Positions 5,494 to 39,255 of a DNA stretch of 64,000 nucleotides are shown one piece after another. Where the stretch lies: NCBI GenBank assembly GCA_965242545.1, contig OZ251456.1, positions 2,947,093 to 3,011,092 on the forward strand, in the 5' to 3' direction. Below the pieces are notes generated by a model that was given only the letters and a program-made list of their open reading frames with translations, searched no databases and was not told where the DNA came from. A program made the translations under genes and the position numbers. This DNA comes from a bacterium. Its GTDB lineage: Bacteria > UBA8248. Position 1 is the first letter of the stretch, and the number at the start of each line of letters is the position of its first letter.

Positions 5494-5945
5494 CTCGAAC
5501 TCCACTCCTTGAGAATCATTTCTTTCATGGGATCATCATCGCCAAGTTCATATCCATGATAATCTCCTTCCCTCCCATGTATTGCCTCATATACGCGCCC
5601 ATCCGGGTCCACCGCCCAGACGTGTTTGGGAAACTCCCTCGTAAGGCGGCCGCTGATCATACCTCGCCTTATGCCCTCCCGAAAGAGAGCCTTCGCTTCG
5701 GCGCGCTCCACTATCCTGCCGCCATCGCATAATGATTTGTTCGGGCGCGGATTCGCCGGCGGGTGAAAGCCATAGTCGGCGGCGTTCCGTTTGTGGAGAG
5801 AGCTGCCCGTATATTTCGCCCTGCTTGCGTATCGCTCCAGAACATCCGGGGCAACCTCGTCTTTTGGGATGATTCTGCGCTTGGGGTTGTTGCCTTGGCG
5901 CTTTCGCATTGACTGGCTTTCCTGCCAACCGATCGCCGGTTTCAT
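5478..5945 (-). CDS. Hypothetical small protein (143-156 aa), upstream gene of the two-gene module
   Basis: Real part of track ORF 5478..6341, whose N-terminal 130 aa is an alternate frame of bcp. Two candidate starts: ATG 5945, or ATG 5909 (MRKRQGNN) with a better AGGAAAG ribosome-binding site. No Walker motif and no fold I recognise. Confidence 0.45.
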   Translation of the reverse strand: MKPAIGWQESQSMRKRQGNNPKRRIIPKDEVAPDVLERYASRAKYTGSSLHKRNAADYGFHPPANPRPNKSLCDGGRIVERAEAKALFREGIRRGMISGRLTREFPKHVWAVDPDGRVYEAIHGREGDYHGYELGDDDPMKEMILKEWSSRCPAS

Positions 5946-6016
5946 GGCGTCGGCCGATAAAAGCGACTTGCAGGAGTCGTTTTGGAACCCCGCGAACACC
6001 CGCGGCGGGGCGGCGG

Positions 6017-20402: not shown

Positions 20403-20526
20403 GGCTGGTCCCCCGTCATTGCGCGCGCGGCGCGGTGAAAAACGGACGAATCTTTTCTCCAATCACCAGCCATCATACACGGACGGGCGCGAAACGCAAA
20501 CCGCCCCGCCTTCGCGCGGGCGCGTC

Positions 20527-21558
20527 TCAGGCGGAGGCGAGCGCCGTCTCGACCTTTTTGGCGACGTCGGCCGGCACCCATTTCTTCCAGACCTTGTTGG
20601 TCTTGAGGAAGTGGATGGCGGTCGCCTTGGCGTCCCCGCCCGCCTCCCTCTCCAGGTAGGCCAGCGCCTTCGAGACGACGCCGGACGGCAGGGTGTACTT
20701 ATCGAGGAAGGCGATGATCTTCGGATTCTCCGCCGCGAACTTCGCGGCGGCCGACTTCAGCAGCTCCGCCTTCCGGTAGGCGGTGGCTTTCCGGGGGTCG
20801 CCCATGGCGCTCTCCCCGTTCTTCCTTACCGCCGCCGCGCGCTTCATGATCTCGCTCCAGTCCGCTTCATTCCAGGCGGGCTCCTCGAGCTTGACGAGGT
20901 CGATCTGTCCCTGGAGCGCCGTCGGCGCGTAGAAATAGGTGAGCGCCGGCTTCTTCTTGAGATAGACGCCCTTGATGGCCGCCGTAAGCGCGCCGAGCGA
21001 ACCGGGGCGGGTGTTGGTGAAGTGCTTCTCGAGTCCGTAGGCGCGGAGCTTCACCGTGTTGATGATCTCGCAATACCAGCCCGGAATGCAGTTCACGAAC
21101 CGGCCCTTGGAGGGCTCCTCGGGATCCTTGAAGAGATGCTTGTATTTCGGGAGATCGAACACCGACCTGAGGCCCGGGTTCGCCTCCTGGACGAAGCGCG
21201 GGATATACCAGCCCTGCTCGCCGTCCGGCGTGTTGACGCCCAGCATCCTGATATTGCCGCTCTTCACGGCGGCGTCGTATTCGGCCTTGATGTTGTCGTA
21301 CCACACCTCCATGATCAGATCGTTCTTCCCTTCGTAGTGCGCCGTCATAATCGGCACCGAGGCGCCGTAAATCAGTCTCACCCTGCAGCCGTAGCCGTGC
21401 CGCAGGATGAAGGCGGCCATCTGGCTGTGGAAGTTGGCGCTGTCCCAGTTGAGGTCGCCGATGCGGACCTTGCAGGCGGCCTTCGCCTCCCCGGGCGCGG
21501 CGAGGGGGGACGCCAGAAGTGAAGCGAAGACAACAATCGCAAGAGCTCCGAGTCTCAT
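20527..21558 (-). CDS. proX: Glycine betaine-binding periplasmic protein (ProX/OpuAC), copy 2 (tandem paralog)
   Basis: Roughly 80% identical to copy 1 along the full length; the C-terminal ~60 aa are almost identical. Confidence 0.85.
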   Translation of the reverse strand: MRLGALAIVVFASLLASPLAAPGEAKAACKVRIGDLNWDSANFHSQMAAFILRHGYGCRVRLIYGASVPIMTAHYEGKNDLIMEVWYDNIKAEYDAAVKSGNIRMLGVNTPDGEQGWYIPRFVQEANPGLRSVFDLPKYKHLFKDPEEPSKGRFVNCIPGWYCEIINTVKLRAYGLEKHFTNTRPGSLGALTAAIKGVYLKKKPALTYFYAPTALQGQIDLVKLEEPAWNEADWSEIMKRAAAVRKNGESAMGDPRKATAYRKAELLKSAAAKFAAENPKIIAFLDKYTLPSGVVSKALAYLEREAGGDAKATAIHFLKTNKVWKKWVPADVAKKVETALASA

Positions 21559-21742
21559 GGTTGGCCTCCCGTCCTTGCGCGCTCCGCGCGAAGCGATGAA
21601 AAAACCTCAGGATGGGGAATTTTCCTACGGGCTGACGGGAAACGCAAACCGCCGCGCATCGGCTGTTCGCCATCATCTCGAAGCCGTTCGTTCGTGCTAC
21701 CATCGGCCTCATCGTCCTCCCGCCCGAGCGAGCGGCGCGCCC

Positions 21743-22756
21743 ATGCCCGAGATGAGATACGACCCGCTGCGCGGCGAATGGACGCTCATCGCGCCCGGCC
21801 GGCGCGCCCGGCCTCATCCCCCGCGTTACGCGAACGCCACGCCCCCGGAAGAGGATCCGTCCTGCCCCTTCTGTCCGGGAAGCGAGAGCGAAACGCCGCC
21901 GGAGGTCGCCGCCCTCAGGGACGAGGGGACGGAGGAGAACGCCCCCGGCTGGCGCGCCCGCTGCGTGGCGAACAAATACCCGGCCGTCGGCGAAGGGGAG
22001 CTCCTGCGGGAGGAGGGAGAAGTTTTCTCCTCTCTCCGGGGCGGGGGGCGCCACGAAGTGCTGATCGATTCGGCGCATCACGCAAAGAGCCTGGCCGACC
22101 TGGGCGACGCGCACGCGGGCGACGTCCTGCGTCTGCTCCAGGGAAGGGCGCGGGCGCTCCTGAAGGTTCCCGGCGTCCGCTCCGTCTGCGCCTTCAAGAA
22201 CCACGGCGCGATGGCGGGCGCGTCCATCCTCCACTCGCACATCCAGATTCTCGCCCTTCCGGCCCCGGCGGGCGGAGCGGAAGGGGCCCGGCGACAAGAG
22301 GCGGCTTTTCACAGGGAGCGAAACGCCGCGCTTCTGGATCACGTGATCGCCGGGGAGATGGAGAAAGAAGCGAGGATGGTGGAAGGAGGAGCAGGGGGCG
22401 TCGTCGCGTTCTGCCCCTGGGGGTCGCGCTTTCCCTATCTCGTCTGCATCGCCCCCTGGCCGACCGAAGCCTCCTTCACGGACGGCGCGCCCGGGGCCGT
22501 CGCCGCGGCGGGGGGCGCTCTGGCGAGAACGCTCAGGCGCTACAAGAGGCTGCTGCGCGATCCGCCCGTCAACGCTTCTTTTTTCCTGGAGACGAAGGGC
22601 GTGGGCGAAAACCCCGCCGCGCATCGCTGGCGCATCGAACTCTTTCCCCGCCTGACGCCTCTGGCGGGCCTCGAGACGGGACTGGGGGCGCACGTCAACG
22701 AAGTCGCTCCGGAGCGCGCCGCCGAGGAGCTGAGGAGCGCGGACTGCGAGGAATGA
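21743..22756 (+). CDS. galT: Galactose-1-phosphate uridylyltransferase-like protein (GalT/HIT superfamily)
   Basis: 'MRYDPLRGEWTLIAPGRRARP' aligns to the E. coli GalT N-terminus; Zn site 'CPFCPG'; active site 'FKNHGAMAGASILHSHIQI' corresponds to FENKGAAMGCSNPHPHGQI. Start is the internal ATG at 21743; the upstream 112 codons of the track ORF are antisense to proX. Confidence 0.7.
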   Translation: MPEMRYDPLRGEWTLIAPGRRARPHPPRYANATPPEEDPSCPFCPGSESETPPEVAALRDEGTEENAPGWRARCVANKYPAVGEGELLREEGEVFSSLRGGGRHEVLIDSAHHAKSLADLGDAHAGDVLRLLQGRARALLKVPGVRSVCAFKNHGAMAGASILHSHIQILALPAPAGGAEGARRQEAAFHRERNAALLDHVIAGEMEKEARMVEGGAGGVVAFCPWGSRFPYLVCIAPWPTEASFTDGAPGAVAAAGGALARTLRRYKRLLRDPPVNASFFLETKGVGENPAAHRWRIELFPRLTPLAGLETGLGAHVNEVAPERAAEELRSADCEE

Positions 22757-22870
22757 AGCGCCGCGCTCTCACGGACTCAACGAAAGCCGCGCCGGCGGCG
22801 GGCCGCCTTCGCTTGATTCGCGCCCCCTAAAGCGCGCGCCGCCCCGGCTTCGCCGCAAACTTCCGAAACC

Positions 22871-23486
22871 CTAATGCACGTATTGGCCGCCGTTCACGTC
22901 GATGGTGACGCCCGTGACGTAGCCCGAGCCCGGCGTGGAGAAATACCAGATCGCGTCCGCCACGTCCTCGGGCTCGCCGCCGAAGCCCACGGGCAGGCTC
23001 GCCACGATTTCCGGCACGCGCTCCTTGTGGACCAGGCGAAAACGCCTGGTGAGCGTCGCGCCCGGCGCAACGGCGTTCACCGTGACGCCGTGAGGCGCGA
23101 GCTCCACGGCGAGCCTTCTGGTGAACCCCTGCATGGCGGACTTCGAGGCGCTGTAGGCCAGCGAGATGTTCGGCAGGGCGTCGCGCGCGGAAATGGAGGA
23201 GACGTTCACGATGCGGCCGTAGCCCCTCCTCTTCATCGGGGCCGCGGCCGCACGGCTGGCGAAATAGCAGCTCGTCAGGTTCCAGTCCATGATCTTTTCC
23301 CACTCGGCCTCGTCCAGATCCTCAATGCCCGGGTTGTCCACGAAGCCGCCCGCGCTCCCGGTCCCGGCCCATGATGGCCACCCGCGCGCCCTCTCCGGCG
23401 AGGCGGATCGCCGCCGCCAGGCCGATGCCGTCCGTGGCGCCCGTGATGATGGCGACCCGGCCCTTTATCGAGGATCTTTCATGCAC
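22871..23486 (-). pseudogene. Short-chain dehydrogenase/reductase paralog, disrupted (internal ~150-bp deletion plus frameshift)
   Basis: The N-terminal 'HERSSIKGRVAIITGATDGIGLAAAIRLAGEGARVAIMG' (GTG start at 23484-86) and the C-terminal 'VDNPGIEDL...NVSSISA...YSASK...VNGGQYVH' are in different frames. The segment equivalent to 'LDVD...ILVNCAGG' of the intact neighbour is missing. Confidence 0.5.
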
Positions 23487-23497
23487 GGAAGCGGCTC

Positions 23498-24250
23498 CTA
23501 GTGCGCGTATCTGCCGCCGTTCACGTCGAGCGTCACGCCCGTCACGTAGCGCGCTCCGGGGCGAACGAGATACCACACGGCATCGGCGACGTCGGCGGCT
23601 TCCGCCACGCGGCCCAGCGGGATCTTCGAGACGATCTCGGGCAGTCTCTCCCTGTGCAGGGCGGCCACCCGGGGGGAGAGCACGACGCCGGGCGCCACCG
23701 TGTTCACCGTGACGCCGCAGGGCGCAACCTCGACCGCCAGCCGTCTGCAAAAACCGAACAGGCCGGCCTTGGCCGCGCTGTAGGCGAGGCCCGTCTCCAG
23801 AATGCCGTCGCGGCCCGACAGGGAGGAGACGTTCACGATGCGGCCGTAGCCCGCTTTCTTCATGGCGGGCGCGGCCTCGCGCGCGCAAAGGTAGCCGCTC
23901 TTGAGATTCAGATCCACGACGCGGCGCCACTCGGCCTCGCCCAGATCCTCAATGTCCGGGTTGTCCACGAAGCCGCCCGCGCAGTTCACCAGAATGTCGA
24001 GGCGGCCCCACGCGCCGAGCGTCTCTCCGAAGGCGGCGCCGACCTGCTCCTCGGACGCGGCGTCCGTCCTGATGAAGCGAACCGCCTCGCCCATTCGCCG
24101 CGCGGCCGCCTCGCCCGCCGCCGCGTCAACGTCCAGCAAGGCGACGCGCGCCCCCTCCTGCGCGAGACGCTCGACGACGCCCGCGCCAATGCCGGCCGCG
24201 CCGGCCGTGACGACGGCCACGTGTCCCCGAATCGAAGATCTGTCTTCCAT
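23498..24250 (-). CDS. SDR-family oxidoreductase (FabG-like)
   Basis: 'VVTAGAAGIGAG' Rossmann motif, 'NCAGG', catalytic 'YSAAK', C-terminal 'VNGG'. Confidence 0.8.
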   Translation of the reverse strand: MEDRSSIRGHVAVVTAGAAGIGAGVVERLAQEGARVALLDVDAAAGEAAARRMGEAVRFIRTDAASEEQVGAAFGETLGAWGRLDILVNCAGGFVDNPDIEDLGEAEWRRVVDLNLKSGYLCAREAAPAMKKAGYGRIVNVSSLSGRDGILETGLAYSAAKAGLFGFCRRLAVEVAPCGVTVNTVAPGVVLSPRVAALHRERLPEIVSKIPLGRVAEAADVADAVWYLVRPGARYVTGVTLDVNGGRYAH

Positions 24251-24272
24251 CTCGGTCCCCGCCGAACCGCCC

Positions 24273-24638
24273 CTATTCGGACCTGTAAATCAGCAAAAGC
24301 CCCTCATAAGCGAGCATCGGAACCACGAACGGAACCAGAATCAGCCACAAGGTATTGTTCTCCAGACCGCTGCCCGCCATCTTGGCCAGGTAGTTGTAGG
24401 CGTAGAAATTCGCCAGCGCGCCGTTGAGGAGGGTCGCCGCGCGTCGATGCCATCCGGTTTCGCGCTTCACCAGATCGAGGAGATTCTCGAGGAGGACGAC
24501 GGCGAAAGCGGCGATCACGAAGGCGTCGATCCAGTCGAATATCGGTTTGGCGGCCTTGGGGTTGACGGCGAAGAAAAAATTGTTGAGCATCAGCGCGACT
24601 GCGACGATCAGAACGAAGAAACCCTTTTGCGAGAGCAT
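24273..24638 (-). CDS. Hypothetical membrane protein
   Basis: Three to four hydrophobic helices. Start set at 'MLSQKGFFVLIVAVALML' (24636-38). Confidence 0.45.
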   Translation of the reverse strand: MLSQKGFFVLIVAVALMLNNFFFAVNPKAAKPIFDWIDAFVIAAFAVVLLENLLDLVKRETGWHRRAATLLNGALANFYAYNYLAKMAGSGLENNTLWLILVPFVVPMLAYEGLLLIYRSE

Positions 24639-24749
24639 GGCTCTCCTCCTCACGGTCCATGGCGAAGCGATCCGGACGCCCGTCGGGCCGCCCGGCGTCG
24701 GCTTCATCCGTTCGCGGCGCGGCGGACGACGCTCAACCCCCGAAAGCCG

Positions 24750-25262
24750 CTATCCCGCCCGCGCCGAGGCGAAGTAGGTGTTGCCGTCGAAATCCCACCA
24801 CCGCGCGCCACGAAAGCCCGCTTTTCGCAACTCGCCCGTGAGTTCGGGCGGGCGAAACCGGGCGCGAAGGGGCGGCCCGAAGTCCATCGGCTTCCTGTGC
24901 CATTCGATCAGGACGAGCGCGCTCTTTTTTCGCGCCGCGCGGCGCAATTCTCCGAGCAGGGGCTGGGGATCGGCCATGCCGTGAACCACGAACGCGAGAA
25001 GCGCGAAGTCCGCGCTTTCGTCCGCAAAGGGAACCCGGGAGCTCCCGCATCGCTTCGCCGTCAGATGGGCGAAGCCGCGCTCCCTTGCCCGCTCCCGGAC
25101 TTCCTTAACCATCACCGGCGAGACGTCGCAGGCGAGCACGCGCCCGTATTTTCCCACCACGCCGCAGGCGGGAATCGAGAAATACCCGGGGCCGCAGCCC
25201 ACATCCAGGAAACTCATGCCGCGCCCGAGCCCCAAACCGCGCAGCGTCTTGGCGGGCGGCAT
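24750..25262 (-). CDS. Class I SAM-dependent methyltransferase
   Basis: Motif I 'FLDVGCGPGYFS' and post-I acidic 'LACDVS'. Start at 25262 (MPPAKTL); the upstream extension in the track has biased composition and no homology. Confidence 0.6.
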   Translation of the reverse strand: MPPAKTLRGLGLGRGMSFLDVGCGPGYFSIPACGVVGKYGRVLACDVSPVMVKEVRERARERGFAHLTAKRCGSSRVPFADESADFALLAFVVHGMADPQPLLGELRRAARKKSALVLIEWHRKPMDFGPPLRARFRPPELTGELRKAGFRGARWWDFDGNTYFASARAG

Positions 25263-25345
25263 GATTCGGCGCCTCTGGGGGGTGAGCAGCAGATGCCGCC
25301 TGCGGGCCGGAAACGTCCACTCCGTCCGCGGCGGGCGCGCGGCGA

Positions 25346-26437
25346 TCAAGCCTCGTCCTCGAGGTAGCCGCCGAGCGCGTCGCGGATGAAGTCCTCCGGG
25401 TGCCCCTCTCTGATGAGCATGAAGCCCTCCACCAGGCACTCGAGCTTCCGCCGCTCCCGGTCGAGGCGCGTCTGCCCCCTCCGGCTCAGGAGCCTCTCCA
25501 CGTCGTCCATCGGCGCGCCGTCGAGCGCCCATTTCAACCCCGTCTTGAGAAGAGGCTCCTGAATCCACTCGAGGCGCTCCTCAATCGCGCCGCTTCCCTC
25601 CCGGGCGGCGATGCCCGCGAGCTCGACGCACTGGCCGATGATGTCGACCGCCGCCTGGGCGGACGGAGAAAACCGGACGCCGGGCAGGCGCTCGTAATCC
25701 GCCTCGCCCTCCGGCAGAAAGGCGACGAGGCGCGCCCTCGCGCGCTCCTCGCTCACGCCCTCGATGATCGCCAGCGCGCCCTCGATGGCGATTTCCCTGT
25801 TCCTCTCCATCGCGCCGAGGGCGGAGTCGATTTGCCGCACGAGGATCGTCTCCGCCTCGCCGGAGGGCGTCTGATCCACCAGCATCCGCAGGCCGGTGGC
25901 GAAAATTCCGTCCGGGCTTCGCTCCAGGGCGGGCTCGAGGGAGAGCAGACCGTGCCGCTCCGCGCGCGCAGCGAGGGCGGCGACCACCGAAACCGCCTGC
26001 CCGGCCGCGCTCCCGGGAGCATGAAACGCGGCGAGCTCTTCTTCCACCGTCCGCTCCAGCGGGGGAATGGCGTCATCGGCGGGGCCGTCGAACGTGATGT
26101 CGCCGTGCTCCTTCATGGCGTAGGCGGTCTCCATCAGCAACTGACGCGCCTCGACCACCCGGTCGCCTTCGTCCGCGACGCCTCTTTTGATCTCTTCCCG
26201 AATGCGGCGGGCGTTTTTCGCCGAGACGTTTCCGAGCACCCGATCCACCACCCGCGCCTCCGCGCTCCGAAGCGCCCTGGCGAGAACCTCGAGGTCGATT
26301 CGCTCGATGACGCGGCGCAGCGCGCGGCCCGACATCTCCGCGAAGGGCGTCAGGTCGGGATTCTCGCCGGGGGAGAAAAAGCGATGCCCGGGGCCTTCCG
26401 GGCCGGCGTTCATCCAGCGGTCGCCATCAAGATTCAT
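25346..26437 (-). CDS. FliG / MgtE-N domain-containing protein
   Basis: 'RALRRVIERIDLEVLARALRSAEARVVDRVLGNVSAKNARRIREEIKRGVADEGDRVVEARQLLMETA' resembles the FliG C-terminal / MgtE-N helical repeat (…NMSKRAAEMLREDLE…VEEAQQ…). Occupies the position downstream of yidC where jag is usually found. Confidence 0.5.
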   Translation of the reverse strand: MNLDGDRWMNAGPEGPGHRFFSPGENPDLTPFAEMSGRALRRVIERIDLEVLARALRSAEARVVDRVLGNVSAKNARRIREEIKRGVADEGDRVVEARQLLMETAYAMKEHGDITFDGPADDAIPPLERTVEEELAAFHAPGSAAGQAVSVVAALAARAERHGLLSLEPALERSPDGIFATGLRMLVDQTPSGEAETILVRQIDSALGAMERNREIAIEGALAIIEGVSEERARARLVAFLPEGEADYERLPGVRFSPSAQAAVDIIGQCVELAGIAAREGSGAIEERLEWIQEPLLKTGLKWALDGAPMDDVERLLSRRGQTRLDRERRKLECLVEGFMLIREGHPEDFIRDALGGYLEDEA

Positions 26438-26511
26438 CCTCTCCCTCCACGGCTATCGGGAACGCGCGTTCAGCGCCGGCGGCGTCGCTTTCGCCAGGGG
26501 CGGCTTCATCA

Positions 26512-28155
26512 TCAATTCTCCTCGGCCAGCTTCGGGGGCTGGACGGAGCGGTTCACGTAGAACTGCTGGGCGATGGAGAGCAGGTTGTTCACCAGCCAGT
26601 ATATCACCAGGCCCACCGGAACGGGATAGAAGACGAACATGCCCGTGAAGATGACGGGCATGAACATCATCATCTTCGCCTGGGTGGGATCGCCCGCGGT
26701 GGGGGTCATCTTCTGCTGCAGGAACATCGACGCGCCCATGAGCACCGTATAGACGTGGTAGGGGTCCTGCGCCGAAAGGTCGGTCACCCAGCCGAAAAAG
26801 GGCGCGTCGCGCAACTCTATTGACACCAGAAGCGCCTCATACAGCCCGAAGAAGACGGGAATCTGTATCAGCATGGGCAGGCAGCCCATCATCGGGTTGA
26901 CCTTGTGCTCCTTGTAGAGACCCATGGTCTGCTCGTTCAGCCTGGTCTTGTCGTCCTTGTAGATCTCCCGAAGCTGCGCGATGCGCGGCTGGAGTTTCTG
27001 CATCTCCTTCATGTTGCGCATGCTGACGTGGGTGAGGGGATAGAAGACGATCTTCACCAGGATGGTCAGCAGGATGATGGCCACGCCCCAGTTGCCCGCC
27101 ACGGCGTGAAGGGCGCGCAGAATCGACATGAGCGGCTTGGCGATGAAGGCGAACATCCCGTAGTCCAGGGAATCCTCCAGGCCGACGCCGAGCGCTTCGA
27201 GATGCTCCACCGCCTTGGGCCCCACGTAGACGTCGAACGCCGCCTCGACGCTCCCTCCCCGCGAGAGCGGGACGATGGCGGCGTACTCGCTGAGGGTCTC
27301 CGTCTTGCCGAGCAGGCGAACCTCCGCGCCGCCCGCGCCGCTTCGGGGGATGAGCGCCGCGATGAAGTGCTTCGATTGCAGCGAGGTCCACTTGAGGCCC
27401 TCGCCGTGGGTGATCGCCTTCCCTTCCTCGGGATAGTCGTATTCGATCTCCTCGCCCACGAAGCTCATCGGCCCCTCGATGACGCCGCCGTAGGTGTTGC
27501 CGTCGCTCCCGCCCACGCGCGGGCCCCAGACGAGGCCGATGGTCTCTTTCCCGGAGGGGAGGGAAACCCGTATCCCGGCGCGAACGTTGAAGCTGTTGTG
27601 GCGAAAGGTGAGCGCCTTCTCCGCCGAGAGGCCGTCGGCGCCCCGGTAAAGGAAGCGGACCGTCCCCTCGGGGTTCGCCTCCGAAAGCGACAGGTCGCCG
27701 CCCTCGACCTGATAGACCGCCTCGTTCAGCCGCTGCGCCGTCTTTCCGCCCCAGAAGAAGAGCGGCCGCACGTCCGGGCGGCCTCCGGGCGCGAGCTCGA
27801 CGAAGCTCTTGTCTCCCTGCCTGTATTTCAGAAGACGAGCGGACAGAAAGCCGGCGCCCCGGCTCGTCAGATCATACACCGCGTCGCCCACGTCCACGCG
27901 AACGCGCCGCTGCGGCGCGGGAGCAGAGGGCGCGGAGGCGGCGGGAAAAGCCTCGGTCGCCGGCGGGAGGGCGGAGGGCGGCGACTTCAGGGGCGCGCTC
28001 GCGGCGCTCGTTCCCCCCGCGCTTCGCGCCGCGCGCGCCTTGGCCGCCCGCTGCTTTCGCGTCTGCTCCTCCTCCATCGGCCGCACGACGAGGTATTGCC
28101 AGCCGATCAATATCGCCATCGACAGGACGGCGGCGAGAATCGCGTTTTTTTCCAT
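26512..28155 (-). CDS. yidC: Membrane protein insertase YidC
   Basis: N-terminal transmembrane helix, large periplasmic domain, and the conserved C-terminal five-helix core (…GCLPMLIQIPVFFGLY…). Confidence 0.9.
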   Translation of the reverse strand: MEKNAILAAVLSMAILIGWQYLVVRPMEEEQTRKQRAAKARAARSAGGTSAASAPLKSPPSALPPATEAFPAASAPSAPAPQRRVRVDVGDAVYDLTSRGAGFLSARLLKYRQGDKSFVELAPGGRPDVRPLFFWGGKTAQRLNEAVYQVEGGDLSLSEANPEGTVRFLYRGADGLSAEKALTFRHNSFNVRAGIRVSLPSGKETIGLVWGPRVGGSDGNTYGGVIEGPMSFVGEEIEYDYPEEGKAITHGEGLKWTSLQSKHFIAALIPRSGAGGAEVRLLGKTETLSEYAAIVPLSRGGSVEAAFDVYVGPKAVEHLEALGVGLEDSLDYGMFAFIAKPLMSILRALHAVAGNWGVAIILLTILVKIVFYPLTHVSMRNMKEMQKLQPRIAQLREIYKDDKTRLNEQTMGLYKEHKVNPMMGCLPMLIQIPVFFGLYEALLVSIELRDAPFFGWVTDLSAQDPYHVYTVLMGASMFLQQKMTPTAGDPTQAKMMMFMPVIFTGMFVFYPVPVGLVIYWLVNNLLSIAQQFYVNRSVQPPKLAEEN

Positions 28156-28182
28156 CTGGGGGGCGCCTCCGCCGGATTCTGA

Positions 28183-28467
28183 TCAGGGAACCGGATCGTT
28201 CCCTCCTGGATGAAATGGATGGCAGCGTCCTATCCGGCGGACGGTGAGCCATAAAGCCCGCATGGGCGCGTGCCGGCGAAAGGCCTCGAGCGCATAGCGG
28301 GAACAGGAGGGCGAAAAACGGCAACTGCCCGGCATCAGGGGGGACAAAACGAACTGATAGCCCCGAACCAGGATGATCGCCGCCGTGGTCGCCGCCCGGG
28401 AGACGGGACCGACCTCTTTCTTACGGCGCCGCTTTTTCACGGAAAGCGTCGCGGAACGCCCCTTCAA
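28183..28467 (-). CDS. yidD: Membrane protein insertion efficiency factor YidD
   Basis: 'RGYQFVLSPLMPGSCRFSPSCSRYALEAF..HG' hallmark. Overlaps the 3' end of rnpA; the true start is probably internal. Confidence 0.7.
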   Translation of the reverse strand: MKGRSATLSVKKRRRKKEVGPVSRAATTAAIILVRGYQFVLSPLMPGSCRFSPSCSRYALEAFRRHAPMRALWLTVRRIGRCHPFHPGGNDPVP

Positions 28468-28768
28468 TATCCTCTAGCCTCGCTTTCGCCATCGAACCTC
28501 TCGCAACGGCCACAAGGTCAGCGCCCGGGGGGAGATGCGCGGCGCGGCGGCGGAACGCCTCCCGCAGAAGCCGCTTGGCGCGATTCCTCGCAACGGCTCC
28601 CCCCACCCGACGCGACGCGATGACGCCAAGCCGTGCGCACCCCCCCGAGGAGACGGGCAGGACGTGGAGCGTGAAGTGCGGGAACCTGCGCCTGCGCCCC
28701 CGCCTCAGGACGGCGGCGAACTCGCGCCCCTTGCGAATCCGGCGCCCCGGCGGGAAGCCCTCGCTCAT
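28421..28768 (-). CDS. rnpA: Ribonuclease P protein component
   Basis: Basic ~115-aa protein with 'RLGVIASRRVGGAVARNRAKRLLREAFR' (RNR motif region). Follows rpmH. Confidence 0.8.
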   Translation of the reverse strand: MSEGFPPGRRIRKGREFAAVLRRGRRRRFPHFTLHVLPVSSGGCARLGVIASRRVGGAVARNRAKRLLREAFRRRAAHLPPGADLVAVARGSMAKARLEDIEGAFRDAFREKAAP

Positions 28769-28802
28769 GTCCGCCTCCTCCCGGGCGAGGACGACGGGCC
28801 GC

Positions 28803-28943
28803 CTAGACGGAGACGCCGAGCCGCTTTCGGCCCTTGGCCCGGCGGCGCCTGATGATCGCGCGCCCCCCGGTGGTCTTCATCCGCTGACGGAAGCCGTGCG
28901 TCTTCGCCCGCTTTCTTCTGTTCGGCTGATAAGTCCGTTTCAC
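28803..28943 (-). CDS. rpmH: 50S ribosomal protein L34
   Basis: Translates to [46 protein letters not shown] from a GTG start; an in-frame ATG five codons upstream at 28956 is the alternative. Not in the ORF track because it is under 60 aa. Confidence 0.8.
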
Positions 28944-28959
28944 GAAACGCTCCATGTCC

Positions 28960-29265
28960 CGGCGTCAAGGCCGATTCCTTCGTTTCACGAAGGCGCGCCT
29001 GTCAAGAACCGGGCGTAAGGTAGCCGCCAAAGCTCCGATTGTCAAGAACCCCCCGCCGCGCCGGAAGCCGCTCATCCTGAAAAAATCACGGCGGCGCCTT
29101 CTTTTCGCCCGCCGCCTCCGCCGAGGAGCCGGCGTTTTTGTTCGCAATCAACAAAAATTTCGGAAAACGCCTCTTTTTTCGTGAAAGGCGCTTGCCTTGA
29201 AGGTCGTTTTGTGGAAAACTCCCTTCTTTCATCAGATTCGCGTCTCGCCCTTGTGGAAAAACGAT
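28960..29265. promoter_or_regulatory. Candidate oriC / dnaA promoter region with DnaA-box-like repeats
   Basis: Two 'TGTGGAAAA' sites (reverse complement TTTTCCACA, one mismatch from TTATCCACA) at ~29210 and ~29253. Two 'TGTCAAGAACC' sites at ~29000 and ~29040. Inverted 'TTTCACGAA/TTCGTGAAA' pair. Classic rpmH-dnaA intergenic location. Confidence 0.35.
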
Positions 29266-29326
29266 GGCCGTCGCATGGACCGAGGACGCCTCGCCACGCA
29301 ATGGCCTTTGCCCATCGGTTCACGCC

Positions 29327-30658
29327 ATGACGAGTCTCTGGCTTCGCTGCGCGGAAAAAATCCAAGAAGAGGTCTCCGCGAAAACGTTTGATCGCTGGTT
29401 CGCCGGGCTCAGGGAGACGGACGCGAACGAGTCCTCCCTAACGCTCCAGGCGCCCAATTCGTTCACGGCGGGCACCCTGCGCTCGCGGTATTGGGGCATT
29501 CTCATCGACATCCTCAAGCAGGAAGCCGGGCCGGGCGTGTCGCTCATCCTCTCCTCGAACAACGAGGAAAACGGCGCGGGCGCGCCGGACACGGCCGAAG
29601 AGGCTCCGCCGGAGAGCCGCCGCGCGCCCGGACGCCCCGACTTTCTGAATCCCAAATACCATTTCGGGAATTTCGTGGTGGGCGCGTCGAACGAGTTCGC
29701 CCACGCCTGCGCCACCCGCGTGGCGGACGGCATCGAAGCCACGTTCAACCCGCTATTCATCTACGGCGGCGTGGGGCTGGGAAAAACCCATCTCCTGCAC
29801 GCCATCGCCCAGCGGATTCTCGACCGGCGCCCCGAGGCGCACGTCTTCTACACCTCGGCGGAGAACTTCATCAACGATCTCATCGCCTCGATCAGGCGAA
29901 ACCGCATGGCCGCGTTCAGAAACAAATACAGAAAAGCGGACGCGCTGATGGTAGACGACGTCCAGTTCATCGCGGGCAAGGAGCGCACCCAGGAGGAGTT
30001 CTTCTTCACCTTCAACGCCCTCCACGAGGGGAGAAAGCAGATCATCATCACGAGCGACAAAATGCCGAAGGACACGCCGGGACTGGAGGAGCGCCTTCAG
30101 GCGCGCTTCGTATGGGGGATGATGGCGGACATCGGCGCGCCCGACTTCGAGACCAAGGTGGCCATCCTGCAAAAGAAAGCAGGCGAGCGGGGGTTTTTCT
30201 TGTCCCGGGAAGTCGCCCACTACATCGCCGAGAAGGTTCGCTCCAACATCAGGGAGCTCGAAGGCTGCCTCATCAAACTCATCTTTCACGCCTCCCTGTA
30301 CAACATCGATATCGATCTGCCCGTCGCGCAGGAGGTTCTGCGGGGCATCATCCGGGACCCCGCACGCAACTCGACGGTGGACAACATCCAGAGAATCGTC
30401 GCCGCCCATTTTCAAATCCGCGTCGCCGACATCAAATCGAAAAACCGCTCGCGCTGCTTCGCCACCCCCCGGCAAATCGCCATGTATCTTTCGAGAAAAC
30501 TCACGACCGCCTCGACCACGGACATCGGACGGCGCTTCGGCGGCAAGGATCATTCCACGGTGATTCACTCCACCAACAAGATCGAGGAACTGGTCAAGAC
30601 GGACCAGGCCACCTCGGACGCCATTCAGGCGATTCGCCAGAAGATAGAACTCTCCTGA
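29327..30658 (+). CDS. dnaA: Chromosomal replication initiator DnaA
   Basis: AAA+ Walker A 'GGVGLGKTHLLHAI', Walker B 'LMVDDVQF', C-terminal DNA-binding domain. Start at 'MTSLWLRCAEKIQEE' (29327). Confidence 0.9.
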   Translation: MTSLWLRCAEKIQEEVSAKTFDRWFAGLRETDANESSLTLQAPNSFTAGTLRSRYWGILIDILKQEAGPGVSLILSSNNEENGAGAPDTAEEAPPESRRAPGRPDFLNPKYHFGNFVVGASNEFAHACATRVADGIEATFNPLFIYGGVGLGKTHLLHAIAQRILDRRPEAHVFYTSAENFINDLIASIRRNRMAAFRNKYRKADALMVDDVQFIAGKERTQEEFFFTFNALHEGRKQIIITSDKMPKDTPGLEERLQARFVWGMMADIGAPDFETKVAILQKKAGERGFFLSREVAHYIAEKVRSNIRELEGCLIKLIFHASLYNIDIDLPVAQEVLRGIIRDPARNSTVDNIQRIVAAHFQIRVADIKSKNRSRCFATPRQIAMYLSRKLTTASTTDIGRRFGGKDHSTVIHSTNKIEELVKTDQATSDAIQAIRQKIELS

Positions 30659-31026
30659 AAAGAAAAGATCAAGGGCAAAAACGGGCGGAATAAAGCAAAA
30701 TCCTCTCGTCCGGGAGCGGAAAAACCGCCCAGAGGGCGCGAGAGCGCAAAAAACGCCCCAGCGACCGCCCAAACGCCGGGGCGGCCCGCGCCACACACAA
30801 TGCGGCGCAAACCGGAAAATCCGGGGCGCGCGCCGAAAAACGGCGCGCAGAGAAGCCCATGGTGAGCCGTTCTCGGTCGAGAGCGACTCCCAAATCATGG
30901 AAAATCCAGGCAAACGAGCGAAGCGTTTATGAAGGGCTGTCGCAAGGGCGGGCGTTCATGAGCCGCATGATATTTTGCGCGTCCGTTGCTTTGGAGGGGG
31001 GGCATGGTAGTACTGCTTTCGCCTGA

Positions 31027-31132
31027 GGCAATGGCGGGAGGCCAGCCATGAGACTCAAAACCATGAAGTTCAAGATTCTCGCGATCTCCGTTTTCGCCGC
31101 CCTCGTCGCGGCGTCGCCCCTCGCCGCGCCCG
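31027..31132 (+). repeat. Displaced copy of the proX promoter-proximal region, ribosome-binding site and signal peptide
   Basis: ~105 bp nearly identical to the 5' end of proX copy 1 (reverse complement of ~20380-20425 plus the signal-peptide codons): '...GCCAGCCATGAGACTCAAAACCATGAAGTTCAAGATTCTCGCGATCTCC...'. Encodes MRLKTMKFKILAISVFAALVAASPLAAP, then diverges exactly at the signal-peptidase site. Confidence 0.6.
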
Positions 31133-31162
31133 CGCATTCGGAGTCTCCCGCTCCGAGAGCTG

Positions 31163-32242
31163 TTGACCACCAGAGGTTTCCTCCTCCTTCCCAGCGGTTT
31201 TATCCTCCTCTTCCCGGCTGGTTTGTTCCCCTCCCTGAGCAGCGCAGGCGTCGGCAGGTGGGGGCCTGCATCAAGACCTATTGCCTTTCCTCGCTCTTTT
31301 CTCCGCATGGCGGTTGTTCCCCTGCTCTTTGCGCACAGTGTTGCGAGGCTTTTTACCGATCTCCCGATTCGCCTATGGTTTCTCATTGCCGCTCTGTTCG
31401 GTGTCCTCTCCCTCTCGGCTCTTGGGCCTCTCATAATACTTACTCACTGCCAAGCGATTTTTCGCCGACCAAAAGACTCGCTCAGAGATTACGGGCTTGG
31501 TCTCAGGCGGGCATTCGAGTTGATGAAGCAGGGAGTTGCAATTGAACGAATCAACACGGGTGAAGAGGCTGTGGTGAGCAACCGTACCCGCGAGGAAGTG
31601 GAGGGAGGAACGATGAGCGAAAATCAAAAGTGGTACGGAAAGACCATCATAGAAACCATAAACGGAAGAGAATTCATCGACAGGAGGATTTTACCGGGGA
31701 CCTTCGAGGATTCATACCAAGTAGTGAAAGACGTCGGGACGACACAAGAAGAAATAATCGGAAGCGTCCTGATGTCCTCGTCAGGATGGAGATACATGGC
31801 AGACGAAATAGAACGGAAATACGTGATCAAAAAACTCAGGGAATATCGCGCCGCGAAAATACCGGCCAGAAGATACCTCAACGAACTGAAACGAGAAGTC
31901 GGGCAAGGAAACATCACCCTGGAAAAAGCGGAGAAACTAGCCACAAAATACTTGGCGGATCGCGATCAGTACCCGAAAAGACTAGTCGAAAGATGCCTTG
32001 CGGAACTGGTACGAAAATCCTATATAAGGGGAGGCATCACCCTGGAAATAACAACGGAAGTGGCCAAAAAATACCATATCGACAAGACCTATGAGGAACT
32101 GTGCGCAAATTACCTTGCCAAAAACCCAGCAAATTCCCTTGTCAAAATAGAAATCCCGGAAGAAGAAATATCGTGGACGGGATGCCTTGCGATCATCGGA
32201 ATAATAACTCTTTCGATCTTAGTGCAAACGTGTGGAGCATGA
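31163..32242 (+). CDS. Hypothetical membrane protein in the low-GC insert (start uncertain)
   Basis: The 3' ~700 nt are clearly lower GC (~48%) with AT-rich codon usage, in contrast to the surroundings. N-terminal transmembrane helices, a C-terminal transmembrane helix 'GCLAIIGIITLSILV', and a long helical K/E-rich middle. Possible starts at 31163, 31307 (MAVVPLL) or 31612 (MSENQKW). Confidence 0.45.
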   Translation: MTTRGFLLLPSGFILLFPAGLFPSLSSAGVGRWGPASRPIAFPRSFLRMAVVPLLFAHSVARLFTDLPIRLWFLIAALFGVLSLSALGPLIILTHCQAIFRRPKDSLRDYGLGLRRAFELMKQGVAIERINTGEEAVVSNRTREEVEGGTMSENQKWYGKTIIETINGREFIDRRILPGTFEDSYQVVKDVGTTQEEIIGSVLMSSSGWRYMADEIERKYVIKKLREYRAAKIPARRYLNELKREVGQGNITLEKAEKLATKYLADRDQYPKRLVERCLAELVRKSYIRGGITLEITTEVAKKYHIDKTYEELCANYLAKNPANSLVKIEIPEEEISWTGCLAIIGIITLSILVQTCGA

Positions 32243-32586
32243 GCGGCGGGAGCAAAGGAATCCGCAGACTACAAATCTACGAGGATGAGGGCGCATGGCG
32301 CATCATGCATTGGAGATTTGAAACCGGAGACTGGCACCACGAGGGCCCGTTTGAAACCGTCTATCAGGCAACGGACAAGGCGGCGGAAGTGGCCGGCAAA
32401 AGCGTAGGGCGCGAACTGGCGGAACTGGCTACGATCGTAACAATCGCCATGATGGCCGCCCGGGCGCTGAATGAGGAAGGATGGAGCATCACGCGCTCCG
32501 GGCTGGGATATAGCACAACCACAAAATCAAAGCCGAAAGGCGAACCGCGAAACGGCTCCGAAAGCGCAGAAGCAAGAGCGCGATAG
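32239..32586 (+). CDS. Hypothetical small protein (115 aa), translationally coupled to the upstream gene
   Basis: ATGA start/stop overlap with the 31163..32242 gene. Starts 'MSGGSKGIRRLQIYEDEGAWRIMHWRFETGDWHHEGPFE...'. The track ORF starts 46 codons earlier in the overlap. Confidence 0.4.
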   Translation: MSGGSKGIRRLQIYEDEGAWRIMHWRFETGDWHHEGPFETVYQATDKAAEVAGKSVGRELAELATIVTIAMMAARALNEEGWSITRSGLGYSTTTKSKPKGEPRNGSESAEARAR

Positions 32587-33004
32587 CGCACAGACTGGCG
32601 GTCGAAACCAAAGAGAATCCGATCATAAAGCGGCTCATCCGCAAGGGCGGAAACCCGCGAGACATCGGGAGAATCTACGGCGCGTCTCAATACGCCGTCC
32701 TGAAACGGACGGCGAGGGTAAAAAACGGGAATCAACCGTTGCGATTCTCACCTGCCTACAAAGATCGCGAAGGTTGTGGAAAGGGTTGTGAAAAAGGATG
32801 TTAGAATCCCATGGCTCCATCCCGCTCCACGTAAAAACGATCGGCGAAATGCGCTTATCCACACATGAGATCACGCCCCGTCTCTCGGGAAAGGCGCATT
32901 TTTTCAAACTTTCGGGCGGTTTTTCACAAATTCACCGACCCTGCTACTACTGCTTTTCAAATGTTGAATCAGAATTCAGAAGCAACAGCTCCTGAGAATA
33001 TCCC

Positions 33005-34120
33005 TTGCGCCTCACCGCACTGACCCTCAGAAATTTCAGGAACTATCGGGAACTCGAATTTCGGCCGCATGAGAGTTTCAACTACATTTTCGGAAGCAAC
33101 GGAGCAGGCAAGACGAATCTGCTGGAGGCGATTTACTATATCTCCCATCTTCGCTCCTTCCGTCGGATTTCAAGGGAAAAAATGGCCCTGCATGGGGGAG
33201 AGGGAGTCTACGTGTCCGGCGCGTTCCGGCGCGACGGAGATGGAGGGGAGACGAAACTGGAGGCCGCGTTCCGGGGACGCGAGAGGAAATACAAGAAAGA
33301 CGGGCGCGAGGTGAGGAGTTTGATGCCTTACCTCGAGAGTTCGCACGTCGTCGTGTTCTTTCCGGAGACGACCGGCGTCATCAAGGAGGGACCGGGGCCG
33401 AGAAGACATTTTTTCGACGGGGCGATAGCGGCGGTCGAGCCCGGGCACATGGAGGATTCCAGGCGGTATGCGAAACTGCTCTCCGAGCGGAATTACTTTT
33501 TGAGGAACGGTGGCGAATCTGCTACAATTCAGGTTTGGGGAGAGCAGTTGATCAAGATCGCCGCCCGCATCATCGCCCGCAGGAAATCGTATGTAAAATC
33601 GCTGACGAACCGATTGAATCGCCTGGAGTCCCTGTTCGGGGAAACCCGAAGCTCCAGGGCGTCGGTGTCTTACGAAACGGGAGACTTTGCGGGCGAAGCC
33701 GGGGAGGCGCGGGAGGACATAGAGCAAGGCCTCTCTGAAACTGCTCAAAGATTGATGAAGGAGGAGAGGGCGAGGAAGAAGACGCTCTGGGGTCCGCAGC
33801 TGGATGATTTCAGGCTGTCCTGGGACGGGCGGCGAGCGCGGGACGTCGCCTCCCAGGGGGAGCAGCGCCTGATAACGATACTGCTGGTGGCGGCGAACGC
33901 CGAGGAGTACAGCGGCAGGAGGGGAGAGAGCCCGGTCGTGCTTCTCGATGACCTGGGCTCCGAACTGGACGCGGTCAGAAGGAAGCGGGTGCTGCTGTTC
34001 TTGAGCTCCCTGGGAGCGCAGACGTTCATTACGTCGGCCGAGGAATCCGCGTTGCGCGAGAGCGGCGTCGAGGGAAAAGATTTTCTGGTTCGAGACGGAA
34101 GAGTTGAAAGCGTAGGGTGA
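33005..34120 (+). CDS. recF: DNA replication and repair protein RecF
   Basis: Walker A 'GSNGAGKTNLLEAI', signature and Walker B/D-loop 'VVLLDDLGSELD'. Apparent TTG start. Confidence 0.85.
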   Translation: MRLTALTLRNFRNYRELEFRPHESFNYIFGSNGAGKTNLLEAIYYISHLRSFRRISREKMALHGGEGVYVSGAFRRDGDGGETKLEAAFRGRERKYKKDGREVRSLMPYLESSHVVVFFPETTGVIKEGPGPRRHFFDGAIAAVEPGHMEDSRRYAKLLSERNYFLRNGGESATIQVWGEQLIKIAARIIARRKSYVKSLTNRLNRLESLFGETRSSRASVSYETGDFAGEAGEAREDIEQGLSETAQRLMKEERARKKTLWGPQLDDFRLSWDGRRARDVASQGEQRLITILLVAANAEEYSGRRGESPVVLLDDLGSELDAVRRKRVLLFLSSLGAQTFITSAEESALRESGVEGKDFLVRDGRVESVG

Positions 34121-34155: not shown

Positions 34156-36618
<2,463 letters not shown>

Positions 36619-36825: not shown

Positions 36826-39255
36826 ATGGACGACCTCCGCGAAGTCAGCATTGAGCAGGAGATGAGCGCCTCTTTCATGGACTACGCGATGAGCGTCATC
36901 ATCGCGCGCGCCCTGCCCGACGTTCGGGACGGGCTCAAGCCGGTGCAGCGGCGCATCCTCACCACGCTGAACGACCTGGGTCTCGCGCACAACAGGCCGT
37001 TTCGCAAGTGCGCGAAAATCGCGGGGGACGTGAGCGGAAACTATCACCCGCACGGCGAGGCGGTGGTCTATCCGGCGCTGGCGCGCATGGCGCAGGACTT
37101 CTCCCTGCGGGGCCTCCTCGTGGACGGGCAGGGCAACTTCGGCTCGGTGGACGGCGACCCGCCCGCGGCCATGCGCTACACCGAGGCGCGGATGACGCGG
37201 CTCGCCGAGAACATGCTCGCCGACATCGAGAAGGATACCGTCGATTTCATCCCCAACTACGACAACACGCGAACGGAGCCTTCCGTTCTTCCCGCCCGCG
37301 TGCCGAACCTTCTGCTGAACGGCTCCACCGGCATCGCCGTCGGCATGGCCACGAACATCCCGCCCCACAACCTGGGCGAACTTTGCGACGCGCTCGTCCG
37401 CCTGCTGGAGAAGGAGGACGCCTCGACCGAGGAGATTCTCCGGAAGATGCCGGGGCCCGACTTCCCCACCGCGGGCATCATCTACGGCCGCGCCGGAATC
37501 AGGAGCTACTACGAGACGGGGCGCGGCTCGCTTCAGATACGGGCCAAGGCGATGGTGGAGGTCAGCGCGAGGAGCGGCCGCCAGTCCATCGTGGTGACCG
37601 AGATTCCCTACGCGCTCAACAAGTCGCGGCTCATCGAGAAGATCGCGGAACTCGCGCGCGAGCAGAAGATCAGGGAGATATCGGACATCAGGGACGAGAG
37701 CGACCGGAGCGGAATGCGCATCGTCATCGACCTGAAAAGAGACGCCGTGGGCGGCGCGGTGCTGAACCAGCTCTACAAGCACACCCAGATGCAGACGAGC
37801 TTCGGCGTCATCCTCCTCGCGCTCGTGAACAACCAGCCGCGCGTGATGGGCGTGAGGGAGATGCTCTCCCACTTCCTCCGCTACCGCCGGGAGATCGTCC
37901 TCAGACGCAGCCGCTTCGACCTCGACAAGGCCGAGAAAAGGGCGCACATCCTCGAGGGCTACCGCATCGCTCTCGACGCCATCGAGGAGGTCATCCGGCT
38001 CATCCGGGGGAGCAAGACGCCCGAGGAGGCGCGCGACGGCCTCATCGGGGGCTTCGGCCTCTCCCGGCCGCAGGCCCAGGCCATCCTGGAGATGCGGCTT
38101 CAGCGCCTCACGGGCCTCGAGCGCGACAAGATAGAGGCGGAATACGAGGAGCTTCAGAAAACCATCGAACACCTCCGGAAGGTGCTCGTGGATCAGAGCC
38201 TCCAGACCGCCATCATCAAGGAGGAGCTCCTTGAGGTGAAGGAGAAATTCGCGGACGAGAGAAGAACCCGGATTGTGGACGAGGCGGTCGAGATCTCCCT
38301 GGAGGACATGATCGTCGAGGAGGACATGGCGGTCGCCATCTCGAATTCGGGATACATCAAGCGAAACGCCGTCAGCCTCTACCGCTCCCAGCGGCGCGGC
38401 GGCAAGGGCGTGATGGGCATGGGAACGAAGCAGGAGGATTTCGTCGAGCAGCTCTTCATCGCCTCCACGCACGACTACATGCTGTTCTTCACCTCGCGCG
38501 GCCGCTGCCATTGGCTGAAAGTCCACGAGATTCCGCAGGCGGGCCGCGCGGCGCGCGGCAAGGCCGTCGTGAACGTGCTCCGGCTGACGGCGGGCGAGAC
38601 CGTCTCCGCCGTCATGCCCGTCCGCAGGTTCGAGCCGGATCGCTACGTCATCATGGCGACCAGGCGGGGCGTGCTCAAGAAGACGCAGCTCGCGGCGTTC
38701 AGCCATCCGAGGGCGGGCGGCATCATCGCGCTCAGCCTCGACGACGGCGACGAGCTCATCGGGGTGGGCCAGACGAACGGCGGTCTCGACGTGTTCATCG
38801 GAACGAGAAGCGGCAAGGCCATCCGCTTTTCGGAGAACAGGATTCGCGCCGTGGGTAGAAGCGCGCGGGGCGTGCGCGGCATCCACCTGGCGAAAGAGGA
38901 CTACGTGGTGGGCATGGAGGTCGTCTCGCCGGGGGACGTCATTCTCACCGCCACCGAGCGCGGATACGGCAAGCGCAGCCGCGTGGACGACTACCGACTC
39001 ACGAACCGGGGCGGCAAGGGGGTGATCAACATCAAGGTGACGGAGAAGAACGGGCCGGTCGTCGGCATCAGGCGCGTGACCGAGGACGACGAGTTCATGC
39101 TCATCACGAGCGGGGGGCAGCTCATCCGCTCCCGCGTTCAGGACGTCTCCGTCATCGGACGCGCCGCGCAGGGCGTCCGGCTGATCGGCGTCAAGGAGGG
39201 AGACCGCGTCGCGGCGCTGGCGCGCATCGAGGAGAACGGAAGCGGCCCTTCGTAA
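36826..39255 (+). CDS. gyrA: DNA gyrase subunit A
   Basis: Active-site region '…HPHGEAVVY…', catalytic Tyr region 'RYTEARMT', C-terminal beta-pinwheel repeats. Confidence 0.95.

Follow-up and report, generated by a model that had tools for sequence, protein, structure and literature searches.

An ectopic duplicate of the proX start within a lineage-specific insertion between dnaA and the probable replication origin of a UBA8248 bacterium

Introduction

The chromosome of a bacterium of the UBA8248 lineage carries, between dnaA and recF, a lineage-specific insertion of 2,111 bp that holds a 105-bp copy of the 5′ end of proX1, the first of two tandem genes for OpuAC-type glycine-betaine binding proteins, located 10.6 kb away and in inverted orientation relative to the copy. 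Both lie in a 64,000-nucleotide stretch, hereafter the window (NCBI GenBank assembly GCA_965242545.1, contig OZ251456.1, positions 2,947,093 to 3,011,092 of the forward strand), to which all coordinates refer. The explanation that we favour, with a probability of about 0.6, is that the copy represents a short ectopic duplicate that arose within a patchwork insertion through illegitimate recombination or template switching, and that the chimeric open reading frame (ORF) opened by it is an accidental by-product.

The insertion, an orphan patchwork of lower GC (guanine plus cytosine) content that only this lineage has acquired, lies between the end of dnaA and the spacer containing the DnaA boxes. 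According to this explanation, illegitimate recombination or template switching, the type of mechanism suggested by the abrupt ends of the copy, would have copied the 105 bp either during the assembly of the patchwork or afterwards. By chance, the copy supplies a good Shine-Dalgarno (SD) sequence and an ATG, followed by the n- and h-regions of a Sec signal peptide, and translation starting from it would continue for a further 137 codons through A-poor and hence stop-poor sequence. Both the mechanism of copying and the lack of a function of the copy are what we infer from the observations described below.

The duplicate of the proX1 start

A blastn comparison of positions 30900-31300 with the whole window discloses a sole strong non-self match, in which 31028-31132 on the plus strand aligns with the reverse complement of 20422-20318 over 105 bp at 91.4% identity, with nine mismatches and no gaps (E 3e-38). 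The mismatches fall at 31034, 31039, 31041, 31060, 31073, 31086, 31091, 31116, and 31122, the longest identical run comprises 24 nt, and identity drops to background right beyond either end; past position +84 relative to the proX1 start codon, 9 of 19 nucleotides are shared, a level judged not significant. A sequence-only reading of this DNA had described about 105 bp of near-identity to the 5′ end of proX copy 1, including some 20 bp of leader. The alignment bears this out, with the start of the match moved from 31027 to 31028, and the similarity is neither short nor confined to low-complexity sequence, either of which that reading had named as grounds for abandoning it.

The comparison of the window with itself returns just seven repeat pairs in 64 kb, among which the pair formed by the copy and proX1 ranks third in strength, so that the copy is neither a common dispersed repeat nor an instance of generic signal-peptide similarity; the remaining signal-peptide genes of the window show no match to it. 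The tandem paralogue proX2 matches only over short runs, of 29 nt (89.7%) and 23 nt (95.7%), and the closest available relative, designated L001, matches the copy at just 74% and 69%. This confirms the segment as a genuine ectopic duplicate of the start of the native proX1.

The copy spans positions −20 to +84 relative to the proX1 ATG (20402) and comprises (i) a 20-nt leader with the SD sequence GGGAGG, (ii) the ATG, located at 31048, and (iii) codons 1-28, which correspond to the n-region, the h-region and the beginning of the c-region of the signal peptide. Several details of the sequence-only reading need correction in this respect. The copy resides 363 bp inward from the left edge of the insertion, not at its head, and since only 20 nt upstream of the ATG were copied, it carries no promoter. 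The signal peptide is also incomplete. With cleavage sites assigned by rule of thumb and inspection, the predicted ProX1 site is A-K-A/A (the slash marks the cut) after residue 33, three residues ahead of the beginning of the Pfam OpuAC domain at residue 36, and the copy stops five codons before it. The proposed coincidence of the end of homology with a cleavage site SPLAAP/ fails as well, because cleavage as LAA/P would place at +1 a proline, which signal peptidase I does not accept in that position. The likeness to the ProX/OpuAC family (PF04069) consists of 28 codons and a ribosome-binding site in the form of a 91%-identical DNA copy of the proX1 start; the differences are that the copy lacks the OpuAC domain and stops before A-K-A/A, and that the relatives have no proX at this place.

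The proX orthologue of L001 begins MKPKTMKFRALAV and displays the N-terminal architecture of proX1, the 'MKF' segment included. This shared architecture shows that copying ran from proX to the insertion, since it marks the N-terminus of proX1 as ancestral to proX. In an alignment of the copy, proX1, proX2, and two L001 genes, positions 31060 and 31122 look derived in proX1 and positions 31034 and 31086 look derived in the copy, and at 31116 the copy is unlike both local proX genes. The difference at 31116 and those on both branches argue that the copy is neither brand new nor a misplaced proX read, and suggest that, of the nine differences, proX1 acquired at least two and the copy some of the others.

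The two proX genes are located upstream of the proW-like and proV-like genes and share 85% DNA identity, with copy 2 lacking six N-terminal codons ('KAMKFR'). Just past the h-region, the tandem copies are nearly identical within each genome and differ between genomes (L001, 913-1013 and 2102-2187; window, 20318-20350 and 21492-21520), which suggests concerted evolution by gene conversion between them.

Two further origins of the segment were considered. A decayed third proX paralogue, which the sequence-only reading had envisaged in case relatives carried an intact gene here, is ruled out, as the relatives hold no gene at all between dnaA and recF. It is unlikely that the segment remains from a proX orthologue gained by horizontal transfer along with its upstream sequence, because a donor of 91% identity should match past −20 and +84 and the identity ends abruptly at these points.

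The insertion next to the probable origin

A DnaA scan of a genome collection provided 30 loci for comparison, the closest of which belong to metagenome-assembled genomes (MAGs) labelled Nitrospinota or Tectomicrobia, with DnaA at most 83% identical. In 15 relatives (DnaA 61-83% identical), dnaA is followed by a spacer of approximately 230-260 bp and then by recF, with no ORF between; the spacer of the window measures 2,346 bp. The alignment with four relatives (L001, L002, L004, and L007) delimits the insertion at both sides, the dnaA tail matching up to 30664 and the spacer matching from 32776, so that the left junction falls at 30664/30665, 6 nt after the dnaA stop, and the right junction at about 32775/32776, just ahead of the first DnaA box. 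Because the 15 relatives hold the short spacer only, the insertion is specific to this lineage, and the placement of the copy within such an insertion, as originally read, holds against all 15. The description of the copy as a recombination scar stands in so far as an ectopic copy is present, probably as a relic of recombination. On the other hand, the associated idea that the insertion arrived by homologous exchange with the proX region falls, since neither junction has proX homology and the copy is internal.

The insertion separates dnaA from the probable replication origin. Pfam scans of the window give the order parB, mnmG, mnmE, proVWX-X, yidC, rnpA, dnaA, recF, gyrB, gyrA, a classic origin neighbourhood, and the cumulative GC skew reaches its minimum at approximately 31-32 kb. 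All five DnaA boxes of the window (TTWTNCACA, 0.59 expected by chance) lie here, at 29210 and 29252 before dnaA and at 32787, 32855, and 32920 before recF. The segment 32776-33004 combines a DnaA-box cluster, an AT-rich stretch, the switch in GC skew and the vicinity of dnaA, and on these features it is the probable oriC. The spacers read in seven relative loci preserve the DnaA boxes and the AT-rich stretch and contain neither an ORF nor dnaN. As regards the wider arrangement, the boxes at 29210-29260 and 32776-33004 look like a bipartite oriC, the distance between the halves of which is approximately doubled by the insertion. The ancestral order, seen across the clade (L001-L016), is dnaA, a spacer of approximately 240 bp, recF, and gyrB, with dnaN absent between dnaA and recF, and dnaN was not located within the 64-kb window.

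The insertion has a GC content of 54.7%, compared to 66.0% for the window, and looks composite in make-up, comprising (i) a first part with many A-tracts, (ii) the proX copy, (iii) an A-poor block, and (iv) an A-rich block (Table 1). The first part displays about 11 runs of five or more A per kb, compared to about 1 per kb elsewhere, and no run of five or more T; the motif GCG(G)AAAAAC(C/G)GC recurs in it, and 30828-30848 is a perfect hairpin (GCGCGCCG-AAAAA-CGGCGCGC). Apart from the proX copy, the insertion has no match in the rest of the window or in the 30 related loci.

The search for an agent of mobility was negative throughout. A repeat search over 30400-33100 found no terminal inverted repeats and no clear target duplication, the nearest being ambiguous direct repeats of at most 4-7 nt (AAAGATC and GAAG) near the junctions. 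The ORFs of the insertion show no significant match to a transposase, integrase or recombinase in Pfam, PHROG, NCBIfam or PADLOC, the best being a PHROG integrase at a non-significant E of 0.034; no tRNA or tmRNA was found in the window, and the insertion has no Rfam match to a structured RNA even at E≤1. A mobile element is rejected for lack of terminal repeats, a clear target duplication, a transposase or integrase, and a tRNA. Likewise, a phage, plasmid or defence-system origin is rejected, because phage and plasmid collections, viral contigs and PADLOC returned no match to the insertion at either the DNA or the protein level.

The insertion looks like decaying DNA of foreign origin. The signs of decay include an SD-ATG pair at 31004 stopped after 15 codons and a helix-turn-helix-like frame without an ATG, GTG or TTG start, which crosses the right junction so that its last nine or so codons are host spacer. 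On its sequence, this frame looks like a decaying gene, apparently cut short by the right junction and possibly once continuous with the 115-residue ORF through a frameshift near 32520-32540. The host genes flanking the insertion align with the relatives over their full length in single high-scoring segment pairs and without frameshifts, which indicates that local sequencing error is low.

The integration of foreign DNA at a comparable place is reportedly known from Mycobacterium tuberculosis, in which Kurepina et al. (1998) and Turcios et al. (2009), both cited in PMC3701491, are said to have described non-random IS6110 integration in the dnaA-dnaN region. The likeness lies in the tolerance of foreign DNA in a short spacer after dnaA, beside DnaA boxes. 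The differences are the lack of a transposase, of terminal inverted repeats and of a clear target duplication in the present case, and the identity of the next gene, recF instead of dnaN.

The chimeric open reading frame

The ATG of the copy opens a frame of 165 codons, 28 of them ProX-derived and the other 137 encoding a segment rich in Pro (20), Ser (20), Arg (15), and Cys (9). In the copied part, inspection recognizes an n-region MRLKTMKFK with a charge of +4 and an h-region ILAISVFAALVAA, both as expected for a Sec signal peptide. The 28 copied codons differ from proX1 by three synonymous and three non-synonymous changes, the latter all conservative (A5T, R9K, and A15V). To this extent the sequence-only reading was right, in that the copy does open a chimeric ORF with the SD sequence, the ATG, and the n- and h-regions intact.

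The coding signal ends with the copy. Codon log-odds trained on 15 host genes give the copied part +1.17 bits per codon in its own frame and the post-copy part −0.85 bits per codon (−0.50 with the insertion's own usage), the lowest value of the three frames, and a coding signal downstream of the copy is lacking. The length of the frame is matched in 127 of 5000 dinucleotide shuffles (2.5%), which contain an open run of at least 137 codons. The downstream block consists of only 16% A and, being A-poor, is stop-poor, with two forward frames and one reverse frame open; a minus-strand gene beneath this segment is rejected, as the translations are Arg-rich, not protein-like, and without matches.

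The comparison with known proteins points in the same direction. The chimeric ORF has no Pfam match other than noise even at E≤1 and none in PHROG, NCBIfam or PADLOC; the OpuAC domain is absent, which sets the product outside the ProX family. The single-sequence AlphaFold model has a mean predicted local distance difference test (pLDDT) of 56, with three helices of pLDDT 73-83 in residues 61-120, and no fold match at E≤0.001. The protein search found no homologue, a weak negative, since the same search missed the public protein record P0001 when the query matched the first 102 residues of that record without a difference, so that its negatives carry little weight, notably for queries of biased composition. 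The functional signal-peptide capture proposed by the sequence-only reading finds no positive evidence in the lowest codon score of three frames and the lack of a family, homologue or fold match, and the 165-codon ORF is most likely accidental.

Several observations weigh against an accidental origin of the frame. The copy retains all the elements of a translation start, and its SD sequence is if anything better than the GGGGGA of proX1. Beyond the h-region, inspection finds the new small-residue sites A-P-A/H and A-H-S/E, which, together with the intact n- and h-regions and the conservative character of the changes, make export plausible if the ORF is expressed. No terminator-like site was found on the plus strand between the dnaA stop and 31048, so that read-through from dnaA could transcribe the chimeric ORF. 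The open frame, equalled by just 2.5% of the shuffles, is mildly unusual. Finally, the missing homologues are compatible with a very young gene, all the more as homologue searches are weak negatives.

Alternative explanations

The best surviving alternative, yet an unlikely one, is a rival to the accidental duplicate or a refinement of it. It holds that the 105 bp landed 24 nt into a pre-existing foreign ORF of 377 codons, extending from the ATG at 31004 to 32242, and broke it, after which any expression of the 3′ part would depend on internal starts at 31307 or 31613. The frames support such a possibility. A 359-residue ORF (31163-32242) is offset by +1 from the frame of 31048, and TGA codons at 31049 and 31064 close it within the copy; the ATG at 31004, 24 nt upstream of the copy and 6 nt after a strong SD sequence (GGAGG), enters the same closure after 15 codons. 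The in silico removal of 31028-31132, which amounts to exactly 35 codons, restores a single uninterrupted frame from 31004 to 32242. The restored frame has the highest score of the three in the segment 31133-31612 (about −0.1 to 0), reads as hydrophobic, membrane-helix-like segments, and is shared by P0001, a public call of the ORF at 31613-32242 as 311 residues from the ATG at 31307. Against it stands a sharp shift in third-position composition, from 3-13% A and 20-43% T up to about 31400 to 30-47% A and 0-17% T from about 31580, which is not expected within one gene. In addition, the codon score is near zero, not positive, the ATG at 31613 has a strong SD sequence of its own, and no N-terminal homologue was found (a weak negative). 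As a separate observation, the TGA at 31049 overlaps the copied proX ATG as ATGA.

The 3′ part of that frame, the 209-residue ORF, contains an internal repeat, 'GNITLEKAEKLATKY' and 'GGITLEITTEVAKKY' (31907-31951 and 32030-32074), 41 codons apart, which speaks for a genuine protein-coding gene, present or past. Searches of 5.8 billion protein clusters and of 1.8 billion representatives returned only the ORF's own record, P0001, and a motif-level match to one other protein, and no match was found in phage, plasmid, viral-contig, metagenome or PDB searches. The motif-level match (E 8e-6, to a repeat protein of 1067 residues) is set aside as functionally uninformative, a 40-residue motif summed over seven repeats. 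The AlphaFold model, with a pLDDT of 42, is too low in confidence for use.

Slightly less probable is a signal-peptide capture or proto-gene, in which the start and signal peptide of ProX would export a new 13-15 kDa Cys/Pro-rich protein co-transcribed with dnaA. It draws on the intact SD sequence, ATG, n-region (+4) and h-region with only conservative substitutions, the plausible new cleavage sites seen by inspection past the h-region, the lack of a plus-strand terminator upstream, a length exceeding that of 97.5% of the shuffles, and the AlphaFold helices in residues 61-120. It is opposed by the worst codon score of three frames, by a compositionally stop-poor region with several frames open, and by the lack of a homologue, family or fold match. 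Moreover, the protein search that found P0001 gave no record of the chimeric ORF, a search that can miss identical sequences, and selection cannot be read from so few changes (three non-synonymous and three synonymous in 28 codons). The fullest form of this idea is gene birth, the grafting of the proX1 start and Sec signal onto formerly non-genic foreign DNA beside oriC to yield an exported Cys/Pro-rich protein of about 14 kDa that would be young, restricted to this lineage and transcribed by dnaA read-through; we regard it as improbable, a little more so than capture in general.

An assembly artefact, in which the 2.1-kb block or its frame relations would stem from a chimeric or mis-polished metagenome assembly, is considered more doubtful still. 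The genome is apparently a metagenome-assembled chromosome (P0001 is encoded on a single contig of 3,087,465 bp), the relatives are all MAGs, the frames within the insertion are odd, and the public metagenome contigs searched yielded no instance of the 3′ junction of the proX copy or of the 209-residue ORF. However, both junctions fall at one precise point of a collinear dnaA-spacer-recF region, so that two independent false joins would be needed, the neighbouring genes are free of frameshifts, and the copy, unlike both proX genes at 31116, is not a collapsed or misplaced proX read.

An invertible switch, in which the 105-bp inverted copies would recombine and invert 20423-31027, so that the ORFs of the insertion would follow the proX promoter and signal peptide and proX1 would follow dnaA, resembles shufflon-type phase variation in having inverted repeats, here 10.6 kb apart, that span the start of a coding region, and is very improbable, given that no recombinase or invertase was found among the scanned ORFs of the insertion and the window, that the repeats are 8.6% diverged with no identical run beyond 24 nt, which argues against ongoing exchange, and that the segment would enclose yidC, rnpA, dnaA and half of the DnaA boxes, essential genes among them.

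Coordinates and other features of the window

Table 1. Features of the dnaA-recF region, the insertion and the proX locus (window coordinates; a blank marks a cell for which nothing is given)
Feature	Position	Strand	Basis or remark
Lineage-specific insertion, 2,111 bp	30665-32775		Alignment to relatives; 15 with spacer of ~230-260 bp only
Insertion, part 1	30665-31027		363 bp, 60.6% GC, many A-tracts
Insertion, part 2: ectopic copy of proX1 5′ end	31028-31132	+	blastn, 91.4% identity, ungapped
Insertion, part 3	31133-31550		A-poor block
Insertion, part 4	31551-32775		A-rich block, 51.5% GC
Source segment: proX copy 1, leader and codons 1-28	20318-20422	−	blastn
Chimeric ORF, 165 residues	31048-31545	+	28 ProX-derived and 137 other residues
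SD-ATG ORF, 15 codons	31004-31051	+	SD GGAGG at 30993-30997; ends at TGA 31049 inside the copy
Orphan ORF, 209 residues	31613-32242	+	Strong SD (GGAGGGAGG), internal 41-codon repeat, C-terminal hydrophobic segment
Orphan ORF, 115 residues	32239-32586	+	Start overlaps stop of preceding ORF (ATGA)
Helix-turn-helix-like frame ('NPRDIGRIYGASQYAVLKR')	32506-32802	+	No ATG, GTG or TTG start
dnaA, left flank of insertion	29264-30658	+	Pfam Bac_DnaA, E 4.8e-65; 83% identity to L001
Conserved dnaA-recF spacer, right flank of insertion, probable oriC	32776-33004		DnaA boxes, AT-rich stretch
recF	33005-34120	+	Pfam
gyrB	34156-36618		After recF; Pfam
gyrA	36826-39255		After gyrB; Pfam
proX copy 1, OpuAC-type glycine-betaine binding protein	19353-20402	−	Pfam PF04069, E 1.9e-49
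proX copy 2, tandem paralogue	20527-21558	−	Pfam PF04069, E 1.3e-43
proW-like gene	18401-19306		BPD_transp_1/ABC_tran hits in proX neighbours
proV-like gene	17377-18396		BPD_transp_1/ABC_tran hits in proX neighbours

Elsewhere in the window, another partial duplicate lies in the neighbourhood, a truncated short-chain dehydrogenase ORF (22871-23341, 156 residues, covering the C-terminal part of the Pfam model only) that adjoins its full-length paralogue at 23498-24250, the pair being 72% identical in DNA. A cluster of short direct and inverted repeats occupies 15861-17092, around a coiled-coil ORF (15937-16707), and includes the pairs (i) 16801-16871 and 16998-17067, at 89%, (ii) 16040-16123 and the reverse complement 17092-17006, at 77%, and (iii) 15861-15890 and the reverse complement 16074-16045, at 100%. 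Finally, genes for a NotI-like restriction endonuclease and a D12-class adenine methyltransferase (1436-3204) adjoin a 2-kb stretch of lower GC content (4001-6000, 58-59%), which, to judge from this composition, may be another acquired block.

Biological meaning

The chimeric ORF bears comparison with the deletion-born fusions described by Kaul et al. (bioRxiv 2026, PMC12803068), new ORFs in which the 5′ fragment of a native gene runs on into unrelated sequence. The likeness is a native start and N-terminal fragment placed on unrelated sequence, with ready-made expression signals. The differences are that the junction here stems from an ectopic duplication inside an insertion instead of a deletion, and that expression, spread and selection of the chimeric ORF are without support here.

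The finding is a tidy but ordinary case of the accumulation of patchwork DNA in a bacterial chromosome, here at a sensitive position between dnaA and the probable oriC, and it discloses that an origin-proximal spacer conserved at approximately 240 bp across the clade tolerates a nine-fold expansion. If expression and export of the chimeric ORF find no support, the copy is a neutral recombination relic. Besides this, the copy is a concrete candidate for the duplicated modules, each a start plus a signal peptide, that may seed new secreted proteins in bacteria, and, if shown to be expressed and exported, the chimeric ORF would offer a rare case of modular gene birth that can be dated.

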